Origin: a virus
IMG/VR virus record: IMGVR_UViG_3300045988_164919
Coordinates: 1-64,000 of that record
Strand: one strand, 5' to 3'
DNA: 64,000 bases
Shown here in pieces: positions 40,768 through 43,794 of this stretch. Each line of letters starts with the position of its first letter. The stretch's first letter is position 1. Both the position numbers and the translations under genes were made by a program. A model generated the notes under the pieces. The model did no database searches, was not told where the DNA came from, and worked only from the letters and a program-made list of their open reading frames with translations.

Positions 40768-41505
40768 CTTACTACTCTATGTCACCATAGCCACATTTCT
40801 GTGTTGTAGTCTGGAATACGTCTTTATCATATGCACGACTTGCACTTAGATAGTTGGTATATACTCTCTACACATTTATTTGGAACAATTTTTTCCACGA
40901 TAAGAAGAGGTTTTGGCATGACAATTTGGACATAATAATTGAAAATTATCTAATTCATTATGAAAATGATTTCCATCTTTATGATGAAGTTCTAAAGGAA
41001 TTGGGTCTCCTAACCATTCGGTTAATCCACAACATTCACATTTATACTCTTTATAACCTTCATCAAGAAGTTTTTTTCTTACTTTATTACTCTGTATATC
41101 AATACTTTTTTCCAAGTATTCTAACAAAGATAATTCATGTCCATTAGGTTTTGACAATCCTTTACAACCTTGATTTCCAGCATATTCAAGGCCAAGCTTT
41201 TTTAATACTGGATTAATTGTTTTAGGATTACAACCTAATTCTCTTGCCATTTGAGCTTTAGTCTTACCTTCAGTAATCCATTGCTCAATTTCTTCTTTGC
41301 GTTCTAAAATATCAGTTCTCATTTATATTACCTCTCTTTCATTATTATTTAAAAATTAAAAGAGGCATTTTAATGAGTGTCGTCCAATTTTTTAGAATGT
41401 GTTCCAAAACTTAGCACGGCGTTCTCTTAGCCATTCACCGTTTTAGCCAACTTCTGCTCTAAAAGTTTCCTCTTAGGCACTCCATTTTAACGTTTGCTAA
41501 GTCAA
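40768..41505 (-). mobile_element. group I-like self-splicing intron in tRNA-Leu(UAA), carrying an HNH homing endonuclease ORF
   Basis: 5-prime splice site follows U and the intron ends ...GTAAG; candidate internal guide sequence GAGTGCC can pair with exon end GGGACTT (one mismatch, G.U at the splice site); R-like CCAGACTACA and GNRA-capped hairpins (CACA-GAAA-TGTG, CTATG-GTGA-CATAG) near the 3-prime end; the ORF sits in a peripheral loop. Confidence 0.5.
40876..41322 (-). CDS. HNH homing endonuclease (intron-encoded)
   Basis: CECCG...LELHHKDGNHFHNELDNFQLLCPNCHAKT HNH motif; N-terminal HTH KAQMARELGCNPKTINPVLKKLG. Confidence 0.75.
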   Translation of the reverse strand: MRTDILERKEEIEQWITEGKTKAQMARELGCNPKTINPVLKKLGLEYAGNQGCKGLSKPNGHELSLLEYLEKSIDIQSNKVRKKLLDEGYKEYKCECCGLTEWLGDPIPLELHHKDGNHFHNELDNFQLLCPNCHAKTSSYRGKNCSK

Positions 41506-41640
41506 AAGTCCCTTGTGTCTACCATTCCACCACACCGGCAAATAAACTATATTAATTAAATCAAGGCTCAATTTTGAAAAATAATATAATTCATTTTAGG
41601 TGAACTTTCAAAAGTAAATTTGCTGCATGAGCCTTACGCC

Positions 41641-41715
41641 TGGCACCGGCTCTCAGAGTCGAACTGAGACTTGCTGATTTAGAGTCAGCTGAGCTAACCG
41701 TTACCCAAAGCCGGA
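41641..41715 (-). tRNA. suppressor tRNA with anticodon CUA, decoding UAG
   Basis: Reverse complement TCCGGCTTTGGGTAACGGTTAGCTCAGCTGACTCTAAATCAGCAAGTCTCAGTTCGACTCTGAGAGCCGGTGCCA. Anticodon stem GCTGA/TCAGC, loop CTCTAAA (anticodon CUA), T-arm CTCAG-TTCGACT-CTGAG, 4-nt variable loop, G73, CCA encoded, T1.T72 mismatch. Confidence 0.7.
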
Positions 41716-41831
41716 ATATATAATTACAAGACAGTTTAATAAAGTATCTTCTTATGAACCAAAAACATATGATTATCTTTAATAAAAATTTGCTGAAACT
41801 GTCTTAGAGAAATTGTCCTAACTTCTCTTTA

Positions 41832-41870
41832 TTTTGTAAATATATTATACTAAATAATTTTTTTAAAATC
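41832..41870 (-). promoter_or_regulatory. copy of recurrent promoter motif upstream of the suppressor tRNA
   Basis: taaatatattatactaaataatttttttaaaatcaaattattc. Confidence 0.4.
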
Positions 41871-43200
41871 AAATTATTCAGTAGAATATATTTACAAAAA
41901 TTAATATATCCAATAGAAATAAACTACACCATAGCCACTAACCATTTGTTGGTCGCCTCTATGCCTACCCACGCCACTAAGTACTTCAGCTTACCTCGTT
42001 CATTAGCTATTGGAATATATTAAATTTTTGACCTACCATTAAACTTATAATACCCACCAATAGGAAGTAAATATACAGTTTTTAACAATAGGATTTTAAT
42101 TCTATAATCTAACAAAATAAATAAATAACTCTACCTATTATATGTCCTTTTCGCGAGTCCACTACGTCTCATTTTCCACGCCTTTATATGAGAGACTACC
42201 AAGGATCTTATTTCCGCACTTGGTAATGGCTTTTTGATATGTGAGCCACAAACATCCCTATTCAGCTTATTTATAGTGGAGAGCTGGCTGGTTTAGCGTA
42301 TTGTTCCACTACCTAATTAACCAAGATTAGGACGCTAATCAAATATCTGATACGTATCAGTACGGTTTCCAGATATATCATTTCACCAGACAACAGGCGA
42401 GTCAACCTTATTTGATTAGATTATGTAAGAACCCTACAGCCATAGGAGCAGGTTCCGCAGAGGCCTCTAACGATGTGGGATTGGCTACCCAATGAGGTTA
42501 ATGTGCAAGCCACCGCCTATATTAGCATCTACATAATTCATTTCAAATAAATCATTTAATGATTTATTTTTAACAGGAAAGGAAATCGTAAGTTATTAAA
42601 TAATAACTTAATTACAATTATACTACGGACCTTCGCCCTACTGGTTAATAATCTTCATTTTATTAGGTAAGTAAGGAAACAAGTCTGAGCTATGAATAGC
42701 GACTTCATAACTTCTTGCCCCGGCCTAAGCCAAATCTCACAGAGGACTGACTACCTCTATCTTTCACCGACCATTCAGAATAGTATTACCAATAATTTTT
42801 ACTAAATTAATATCATACTGTCTTGGCAAATTTCGGCTACTTGACCCTTGACCTTCTCTTATAGTAGATTACGCCACATCAATTGCCAACTTCCTTATTG
42901 GTATTTCCTTGGTTTGGCAAAGTTACCAGCCTTACCCTAACAAGGATTCGGCATTGCTGTTAACAATGCTGTCTATTATGGAAGCGAGAAGAACAGGACC
43001 TTAAATGCGATTATCCCAGCACAATCTCCCCGTAGCCGCATCCTTTGATGCGTGAATCTAATGTATCACTACAAAAGATTTAGAAATAATTTCAAAGTAT
43101 CCTTTGAATATTCCATTCTACAATCTCCGCCAGAGTAGGTCGATTTCTCAGCCTTATGGTGTTAAGTCTGCACTGAGTTGTACTATAACCGTAATTAAAT
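41870..43200 (-). ncRNA. candidate large structured noncoding RNA (about 1.3 kb, class unknown)
   Basis: No ORF of 60 aa or more in any frame over about 1.5 kb; GC is markedly higher than the genome; bounded by promoter motifs at 43225-43250 and 41832-41870; many local hairpins; the 12-mer caccatagccac (41927-41938) repeats the 3-prime-terminal element of the tRNA-Leu intron (40783-40794). Confidence 0.3.
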
Positions 43201-43224
43201 TATTATTTAATTTTTAAAGTTCAT

Positions 43225-43250
43225 TTATTATATATATATTATATAATATT
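43225..43250 (-). promoter_or_regulatory. copy of recurrent promoter motif
   Basis: tatatatattatataatattttttttaaattttcaaatttt. Confidence 0.45.
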
Positions 43251-43279
43251 TTTTTTAAATTTTCAAATTTTATTTTAAA

Positions 43280-43445: not shown

Positions 43446-43484
43446 AAATTATAAGTAATTAATAATTTCTTATTGATTACTTAT

Positions 43485-43520
43485 ATATTATATAATATTT
43501 TTTTTTAAAATTCAAATTTA
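43485..43520 (-). promoter_or_regulatory. copy of recurrent promoter motif
   Basis: tatatattatataatatttttttttaaaattcaaattta. Confidence 0.45.
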
Positions 43521-43589
43521 CAAGACACATTAAATAAATTAACTATTATCCTACCCTTTGGATGAATTATCTTAACAGAGATAATATTG

Positions 43590-43640
43590 GACTTGAACCA
43601 ATAACACATAGATTTTATCTAATATTTGCTGCGTGTGTCT
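43590..43640 (-). other. tRNA-like minihelix (acceptor-like stem plus T-arm only)
   Basis: Minus strand AGATAAAATCTATGTGTTATTGGTTCAAGTCCAATATTATCT: 6-bp terminal stem AGATAA/TTATCT enclosing T-arm TATTGG-TTCAAGT-CCAATA; no D or anticodon arm. Confidence 0.25.
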
Positions 43641-43794
43641 TTACTGTTAGTTATTTAACCCCGACAACCTACTAACAAAAGGGATGGTTCAGGGGAGGTT
43701 ATCTGTGTCATCTAGACCTCATTTTTTCATTCCAATACAAATCTACTTAGGGAGATCAATCCTTTTCAATTATGTATCTTTAACAGAACCCTGA

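Follow-up and report, generated by a model that had tools for sequence, protein, structure and literature searches.

ROOL RNAs form a class of about 580 nt that is found in phages and prophages near tRNA genes (PMC5737381), and cryo-electron microscopy (cryo-EM) revealed that ROOL assembles into a homo-octameric RNA nanocage (PMC12286853). GOLLD (RF01998) is another large, ornate RNA of phages and prophages that lies near tRNAs and combines a conserved with a variable part. Much smaller RNAs, the theta ribozymes, are hepatitis delta virus (HDV)-like, measure tens of nucleotides and occur in the tRNA arrays of gut phages with suppressor tRNAs (PMC10879173). Here we describe a locus in which a ROOL RNA is followed by a second large RNA, referred to as RNA X. 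It is located on a stretch of viral DNA of 64,000 nucleotides (IMG/VR record IMGVR_UViG_3300045988_164919, positions 1 to 64,000), hereafter called the window.

The interval 41870-43200 had been put forward as a candidate for one structured RNA of about 1.3 kb in a sequence-only reading that was made without database searches. Instead, two RNA genes are present which are separated by a short A/U-rich spacer, and each of them occurs independently elsewhere. Very probably they are two separate non-coding RNA (ncRNA) genes on the minus strand, placed in a tRNA/ncRNA island of a large, low-GC phage with a UAG-suppressor tRNA. RNA X is a well-supported member of a non-coding RNA family and not a coding sequence. 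It is the same kind of RNA as ROOL and GOLLD, i.e. large, ornate, phage-borne and situated in tRNA islands, and it belongs to neither family.

A ROOL RNA and an uncatalogued RNA in one interval

ROOL was one of the candidates proposed for the interval together with a cmscan search of Rfam, and that search returned a full-length ROOL match on the minus strand (Table 1). Its score was 320 bits at a gathering score of 99.1 (E = 8e-73). On the same strand tRNA-Tyr and tRNA-Gln are located directly upstream and tRNA(CUA) downstream, which is the phage and tRNA context known for the family. This ROOL RNA is a new member of a known family and ordinary by itself; blastn found no match for it among 50,697 GenBank phages.

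The ends of X in the window were set at the limits of conservation. For this part, the suggestion of "something new" held: it has no Rfam match and belongs to a covariation-supported family. No Rfam family matched X at E ≤ 10 in the window, and none at E ≤ 1 in eight other X loci. A gathering-threshold search and three permissive ones yielded noise only, such as DUF2800 (20.8 bits, E = 0.24), snoR09 and ZEB2_AS1. The ROOL model did not match between 41880 and 42600 (E ≤ 10), and GOLLD gave no match over X at E ≤ 10 in the window or E ≤ 1 in the eight loci. ARAGORN recognised no tRNA or transfer-messenger RNA (tmRNA) in X, and the Rfam models gave no tmRNA or RNase P match; these two and GOLLD, all named before as families to check, are thus not supported. 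Likewise, the Rfam ribozyme models (group I, group II, HDV, RNase P and others) did not match over X.

In blastn searches of the same GenBank phages, neither X of the window nor X of the compact clade (see below) had a match, and a 4.3-kb query matched tRNAs and the HNH gene only. X is absent from Rfam 15, its signature 15-mer was found in no searchable paper, and the ROOL and GOLLD literature that was searched makes no mention of a companion RNA.

Table 1. Positions of RNA X, its structural elements and the surrounding features in the window.
Feature	Position	Strand	Remarks
RNA X, ~620 nt	41924..42544	-	from conserved 5' leader GAAAUGAAU to conserved 3' end ..GGUGUAG
X 5' core	42413..42550	-	match to covariance model R1, 100.9 bits
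X second domain	42312..42417	-	H5 three-way junction, then H8
X middle region	42000..42311	-	specific to window clade; hairpins e.g. GUGGCU..AGCCAU, UACCAAG..CUUGGUA, UCUCAU..AUGAGA
X 3' domain	41924..41999	-	ACGAGG.., hairpin H9, terminal GUGUAG; contains 12-mer 41927-41938
H1	42530-42537 with 42420-42427	-	closes 5' core
H2	42511-42517 with 42469-42475	-	crosses H3 (pseudoknot PK2), inside H1
H3	42494-42497 with 42464-42467	-	crosses H2 (PK2)
H4	42447-42456 with 42428-42441	-	irregular helix; caps core, closes conserved CUGCUCCUAUGGCUG
PK1	J1/2 UAUAGG with H4 loop CCUAUG (42442-42446)	-	
H5	42409-42417 with 42337-42345	-	closes three-way junction of H5b, H6 and H7; 7/7 pairs changed on both sides
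H5b	42395-42408	-	
H6	42372-42387	-	loop GGUGAAAUGAUAUAUC
H7	42347-42360	-	covaries; loop forms 2-bp pseudoknot
H8	42312-42331	-	hairpin; covaries
H9	41951-41965 with 41929-41944	-	long 3' hairpin, loop AACAAA; covaries in compact clade (helix 10)
ROOL-X spacer, 63 nt	42545..42607	-	A/U-rich; two A/U hairpins (42592-42607, 42545-42569); no canonical intrinsic terminator
ROOL RNA	42608..43201	-	full length; Rfam RF03087, model positions 1-574 of 574
Promoter-like site upstream of ROOL	43238..43266	-	TTGAAA-17-TATAAT, 11/12 consensus match, inside A-run + TATAATATAT motif
Promoter-like site downstream of X	41844..41872	-	TTGATT-17-TATAAT, consensus match; before tRNA(CUA)
tRNA, anticodon CUA	41641..41715	-	amber suppressor (ARAGORN label 'Pyl'); next gene downstream of X
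tRNA-Leu(UAA)	40717-41540	-	split in anticodon loop; exons about 41507-41540 and 40717-40772
Insertion in tRNA-Leu(UAA), ~734 nt	40773-41506	-	encodes HTH+HNH homing endonuclease, open reading frame 40876-41322

Conserved fold of RNA X

RNA X adopts a conserved fold of at least ten helices and three pseudoknots which is supported by covariation in several alignments. In alignment A2 (17 sequences, RNAalifold), 17 of 32 pairs showed compensatory changes. Alignment A3 comprised 14 sequences and 55 pairs in ten helices; here 93.6% of the cells were paired as compared with 36-43% in slid controls, and 36 of the 55 pairs had changed on both sides. For the 5' core (alignment A5, 32 sequences) the corresponding values were 95.6% as compared with 41-47%, and 21 of 28 pairs. 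In neither A3 nor A5 did any of 500 shuffles reach the observed values. The comparison of relatives that had been put forward as a check of the RNA gave a signal above both kinds of control.

Within the 5' core, pseudoknot PK1, which connects the H4 pentaloop region with the junction, is supported by the divergent copy at locus L020, in which the junction reads ACAUAC and the loop GUAUGU: all five counted pairs have changed on both sides and are still complementary, and a flanking sixth pair, read by eye, also compensates. The compensation in PK1 comes from this single lineage, which scored 73 bits with model R1 and was found through ROOL and not selected by pattern. The second domain contains H6 with its 16-nt loop GGUGAAAYGAUAUAUC. 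The H6 stem covaries when inspected by eye and is out of register in the MAFFT alignment. In the pseudoknot formed by the H7 loop, one pair occurs as CG in seven sequences, as GC in five and as AU in two. At the 3' end, the CAUAG and CUAUG strands of H9 are swapped in X of the window. Compensatory pairs were also present in the middle region within the window clade (330/349, 353/391, 354/390, 398/420, 399/419, 505/562, 509/558 and 510/557); as the diversity of this clade is low, the middle region is less well supported than the core. The search seeds described below did not impose the conservation seen in GAAUAUAGGCGG, in GAUAUAUC, in the H7 region and in the 3' domain. A pairing of the 5' with the 3' end (28-38 with 685-699), suggested by RNAalifold within one clade, was put down to low diversity and discarded, since it is incompatible with H1, for which covariation extends across clades.

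The alignments were also read with respect to coding. Substitutions in the stems of X alter the would-be amino acids while pairing is kept. The AUG inside CUCCUAUGGCUG was considered as the start of a small conserved peptide, an idea that was discarded: what would be codons downstream of it covary as a stem, and the residues they imply are not conserved.

Distribution of the X family

The first homologue of X was found when ROOL-bearing viral contigs were searched with nhmmer; it is located on a 402-kb contig (locus L018). Conserved blocks of the window/L018 pair then served as seeds for exact-pattern scans, which gave 33 viral loci, 69 metagenome loci and ten true members on contigs of metagenome-assembled genomes (MAGs). 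Most of the 34 pattern matches on MAG contigs were due to chance, and ten passed the profile hidden Markov model. Altogether, the 5' domain of X is present in 112 loci with 86 distinct sequences. The record names point to human-gut assemblies, a sheep-colon MAG, a fecal MAG and one activated-sludge contig, and many of the contigs are 100-400 kb long. A search for second or divergent copies of X in the window and 64 other loci, 30 of them ROOL-bearing, revealed none beyond L020. Also, a scan for further variants of the pseudoknot loop, in which the main loop sequence was excluded, retrieved 20 chance matches and again only L020.

Representatives of the family are 38-66% identical in pairwise comparisons, with the exception of one close pair (90%), and fall into three clades. 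X of the compact clade measures 460-580 nt; its 5' domain spans about 265 nt and is followed by a variable middle and then by a 3' domain of roughly 70 nt, which ends in ..GAGUAG. X of the window clade (~620 nt) has a middle region of its own, and X of the L018 clade is probably longer. Every member lies inside a tRNA array and on the same strand as the tRNAs, and the distance from the conserved 3' end of X to the start of the next tRNA is 25-42 nt in 28 of 38 cases.

No neighbouring protein gene was consistently present, and a conserved protein partner of X was therefore not retained as a candidate. Genes nearby encode freestanding homing endonucleases, a small protein similar to Rv2632c, a DUF2828/TROVE-like protein and an enzyme that, judged by eye from its sequence, is putatively Thg1-like.

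The X-bearing tRNA arrays are general islands of non-coding RNA. L020 (1759-2230 and 3940-4007, minus strand) contains a second element between two tRNAs and ROOL which has an X-type 3' domain (E = 4e-11) and no recognisable X 5' core. In the same array, HDV-like ribozyme matches directly abut tRNAs, and matches to 6A and drum RNAs are found nearby. Other X-bearing arrays hold RAGATH-27 RNAs and phage-encoded tmRNA (L062 1336-1421, L041 769-854, L050 3464-3788). In the tRNA array of the 402-kb contig, L018 2050-2137 (minus strand) gave a partial match to OLE RNA (53.4 bits, gathering score 50) that covers model positions 437-594 only; it probably reflects a shared sub-motif and not a true OLE RNA.

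Comparison of RNA X with ribozymes and introns

As the main alternative to the reading favoured here, RNA X could act in the tRNA array as a large ribozyme that processes itself. It would cleave at its own 5' boundary after the CCA of a tRNA, and perhaps at its 3' G, and thereby mature the neighbouring tRNAs; it might descend from a group I-like intron. We consider this explanation unlikely. It draws on position in the first place: of 70 X copies with upstream sequence available, 19 have a leader that starts no more than 3 nt from the 3' end of a tRNA and 26 one that starts within 25 nt, and the tRNAs encode CCA. Theta ribozymes often start at a tRNA 3' end as well, and their cleavage site lies beside phage tRNAs, a fifth of which are suppressor tRNAs (PMC10879173). 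Moreover, the HDV-like matches of L020 abut tRNAs, tRNA(CUA) is found in 22 of 50 X loci of at least 5 kb, conservation of X ends sharply at ..GAGUAG or GUGUAG, and a multi-pseudoknot core with invariant junctions is typical of ribozymes.

The remaining copies, that of the window among them, do not start this close to a tRNA: X of the window clade follows ROOL and not a tRNA, and many members are separated from the nearest upstream tRNA by 80-2000 nt. With 460-850 nt, X by far exceeds what self-scission requires. It is 5-10 times larger than theta ribozymes, its helix order differs from their HDV double-pseudoknot, and no model of the HDV family or of any other ribozyme in Rfam matches it. As read from the structures of A3 and A5, the strand topology is unlike HDV or group I schemes.

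A link to group I introns had been seen in an exact repeat shared by the 3' end of X and the intron of the nearby tRNA-Leu, with similarity said to continue beyond it. The 12-mer CACCATAGCCAC is indeed present at 40783-40794 and 41927-41938 (chance expectation 0.00), but in local alignments the similarity ends with the 12-mer. Both RNAs further share a terminal module, in which a GGCUAUG..CAUAG hairpin is followed by GUAG and a final G, and both are pseudoknotted RNAs of the same array, so that the 3' end of X resembles that of the HNH-bearing intron. In contrast to an intron, X interrupts no gene and has no P1 or internal guide pairing to exons; it is flanked by complete tRNAs or ROOL. In addition, the residue preceding the putative cleavage site is the A of CCA and not the U needed by group I introns. 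The Intron_gpI core (P3-P8 with P7) did not match X, a test that is insensitive here since the bona fide-looking tRNA-Leu intron of the window was also left unmatched. X ends in ..GUAG, and the only candidate for a G-docking P7 partner, CUAC, is invariant where present and missing in two of three clades. A P7-type CUAC/GUAG pairing was therefore dropped, as CUCUAC is absent from the window and L018 clades. An R-like element had also been pointed out; AGAGACTAC exists at 42191-42199 on the plus strand, which is the wrong strand, and since AGAGACUAC at this position is the antisense of a hairpin in the minus-strand RNA it carries no evidential weight. Without exons and an Intron_gpI match, and with complete tRNAs flanking the relatives of X, the ORF-less intron-derived ribozyme that had been named among the candidates (ORF, open reading frame) is not supported.

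RNA X and ROOL as separate genes

X shares with ROOL a size of about 0.5-0.6 kb, a fold with several junctions and pseudoknots, a place in the tRNA islands of phages and the lack of a known protein partner. It differs from ROOL in its own conserved sequences and helices, and the two co-occur and are not substitutes for each other. It differs from GOLLD in the smaller size of its compact form. ROOL is found upstream of X on the same strand in 24 of the 86 distinct X sequences, which represent two clades that differ substantially in sequence. At least 1.5 kb of sequence upstream of X is available for 46 copies, and in 15 of these ROOL lies inside the first 1.5 kb upstream.

Conceivably, ROOL and X constitute one functional RNA of 1.3 kb in the window lineage, X being a 3' extension domain of ROOL that acts in cis only. 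The order ROOL-then-X and the strand are fixed in 24 of 24 cases, and in the window clade just 27-126 nt lie between the two. A convincing promoter or terminator was not found between them. Nevertheless, this explanation is quite improbable. Members of the compact clade have X between two tRNAs, tightly flanked by them, with no ROOL in the locus. The spacer is not constant (250-1080 nt in the L018 clade), and in L018 a protein gene and tRNA-Tyr stand between ROOL and X. The ROOL model is matched end to end without X, and ROOL-seeded loci with X are limited to the relatives of the window, L018 and L020. The occurrence of X without ROOL and of ROOL without X identifies them as separate genes.

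Separate genes may still share a transcript. Promoter-like sites had been reported at both ends of the interval, and this was confirmed for the minus strand, on which the two flanking sites score highest among the sigma-70-like matches of the region. In the window, the extended motif AAAAA..TATAATATAT is matched 12 times at about nine distinct sites, on the minus strand only (0.16 expected). No terminator-like site was found on the minus strand between ROOL and X. Given that a comparable promoter is also missing there and that the spacer offers A/U hairpins only, co-transcription of ROOL and X is likely.

Absence of coding sequences

The sequence-only reading was right in that the region contains no start-to-stop ORF of 60 or more amino acids; between 41323 and 43900 the longest on either strand has 37. 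If TAG is dropped as a stop, only a 99-codon open run emerges on the plus strand (about 41723-42020), and it overlaps the antisense of tRNA(CUA). Reassignment of any other single stop codon did not produce a convincing or long ORF in the region either. GC content, described as far above background, is raised moderately: it amounts to 36.4% in the region, 38.4% in ROOL and 38.3% in X as compared with 29.6% in the AT-rich window, and several other 1-kb bins of the window match or exceed the value of the region. That the X interval is merely conserved DNA (promoters, regulatory or recombination sites) or a protein gene in an unusual code is scarcely credible: the phage recodes UAG (tRNA-CUA) and promoter-like hexamers are in excess (19 found, 9.6 expected), but compensatory changes extend over at least ten helices where slid and shuffled controls fail, no long ORF opens under any single stop-codon reassignment, and family members are always on the tRNA strand.

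Proposed role of RNA X

Turning to the reading of two separate RNA genes, a single primary transcript could start at the promoter-like site upstream of ROOL (about 43238-43266), run through ROOL and X, and then be cut into two RNAs. In other phages X is packed between tRNAs, often from the nucleotide after the tRNA CCA, and the processing by which the tRNAs mature probably sets X free as well. By analogy to ROOL and GOLLD, the most likely mode of action is that X would act in trans as a folded RNA alongside ROOL, in the takeover of the host translation and tRNA system by the phage; its sequence-invariant loops and junctions might provide tertiary contacts or surfaces for binding of partners. 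A candidate surface is the H6 loop, in which the perfect palindrome GAUAUAUC could permit dimerisation by loop-loop contact. We tentatively propose that X represents a new class of large ornate phage RNAs, which would join GOLLD and ROOL as the third of its kind in tRNA islands, is built on a triple-pseudoknot core and works with ROOL in a subset of suppressor-tRNA gut phages, as a ribozyme or a self-assembling particle in the takeover of tRNAs and translation. In this full form the proposal is plausible while falling short of probable.

Several observations weigh against the reading as a whole, from the two RNA genes to the role of X. (i) The search seeds, which only L020 escapes, account for part of the invariance of CUGCUCCUAUGGCUG and GGUGAAA. 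(ii) Most ROOL loci have no X nearby, and any functional coupling is therefore optional. (iii) A weak promoter-like match (9/12, with TG) at 42546-42519 coincides exactly with the start of X, which could thus have a transcription start of its own. (iv) Two X members carry GAUACAUC, which weakens the dimerisation idea. (v) X appears uncatalogued; a fragment of it may nevertheless sit among the thousands of unnamed intergenic candidates that large automated screens of phages and microbiomes have listed (PMC10690425, PMC8040213).

The finding matters for several reasons. X constitutes a second family of the size of ROOL, with three pseudoknots and long invariant junctions. It is present on more than 100 contigs, with human gut and sheep colon among the record names, and repeatedly lies just downstream of ROOL. 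To our knowledge, very few bacterial or phage RNAs exceed about 400 nt and also have an intricate conserved fold, and nearly every such RNA known to have been studied is a ribozyme, the core of a ribonucleoprotein or a self-assembling RNA-only particle (ROOL, GOLLD, OLE). X is a new target for cryo-EM and ribozyme assays, and its travelling together with ROOL in some phages offers a genetic handle on the function of ROOL. Finally, it adds a large member to the RNAs in tRNA arrays of suppressor-tRNA phages, which include theta ribozymes, RAGATH motifs and tmRNA.

Genomic setting in the window

All recognisable genes around 41870-43200 are located on the minus strand. The minus-strand tRNAs predicted nearby by ARAGORN are those for Thr, Pro, Gln, Tyr and Gly and the one with anticodon CUA. 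Two viral contigs in IMG/VR, 188 kb and 137 kb long, carry near-identical sequence, which, together with the CUA tRNA, indicates that the context is a large phage with its own UAG suppressor. The presence of this amber-suppressor tRNA implies that UAG is recoded in the phage.

The split tRNA-Leu(UAA) was missed by ARAGORN, by the Rfam tRNA model and by the Intron_gpI model. In the related locus L072, an uninterrupted tRNA of 83 nt takes the same place ahead of a RAGATH-33 RNA, which suggests that the insertion in the window is a mobile intron. A full-length RAGATH-33 RNA (40590-40702, minus strand; 139 bits, gathering score 120) lies directly 3' of tRNA-Leu in the window as well, and the order tRNA-then-RAGATH-33 is thus the same in L072 (RAGATH-33 at 2360-2472). 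The closest relative of the window, IMG/VR 3300045988_152007 (L002/L003), carries extra insertions of ~440, ~480 and ~735 nt at positions corresponding to 43330/43331, about 43834 and 44441 of the window. The first two are in the anticodon loops of tRNA-Tyr and tRNA-Pro. Introns of tRNA genes are thus gained or lost between near-identical phages.

Another ORF-poor stretch of 350 nt (43446-43794, minus strand) extends from tRNA-Gln to tRNA-Pro and has its own promoter-like site at 43515-43487. It is just 76% identical in the relative L001, as compared with 91-98% in the flanks.

Further away, a 512-amino-acid ORF (30539-32074, minus strand) contains DUF2828 and DUF7788 and matches PHROG 850, 'RNA-binding protein', with E = 3e-131. 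Its product may resemble proteins of the TROVE/Ro60 type. Five other loci (L040, L043, L047, L048 and L067) encode homologues no more than a few kb away from X, and a weak match to YrlA, a Y RNA-like RNA, was obtained in L081. Finally, an ORF at 34405-35541 (minus strand) has two S-layer-homology (SLH) domains, which hints at a host envelope with SLH-anchored proteins.

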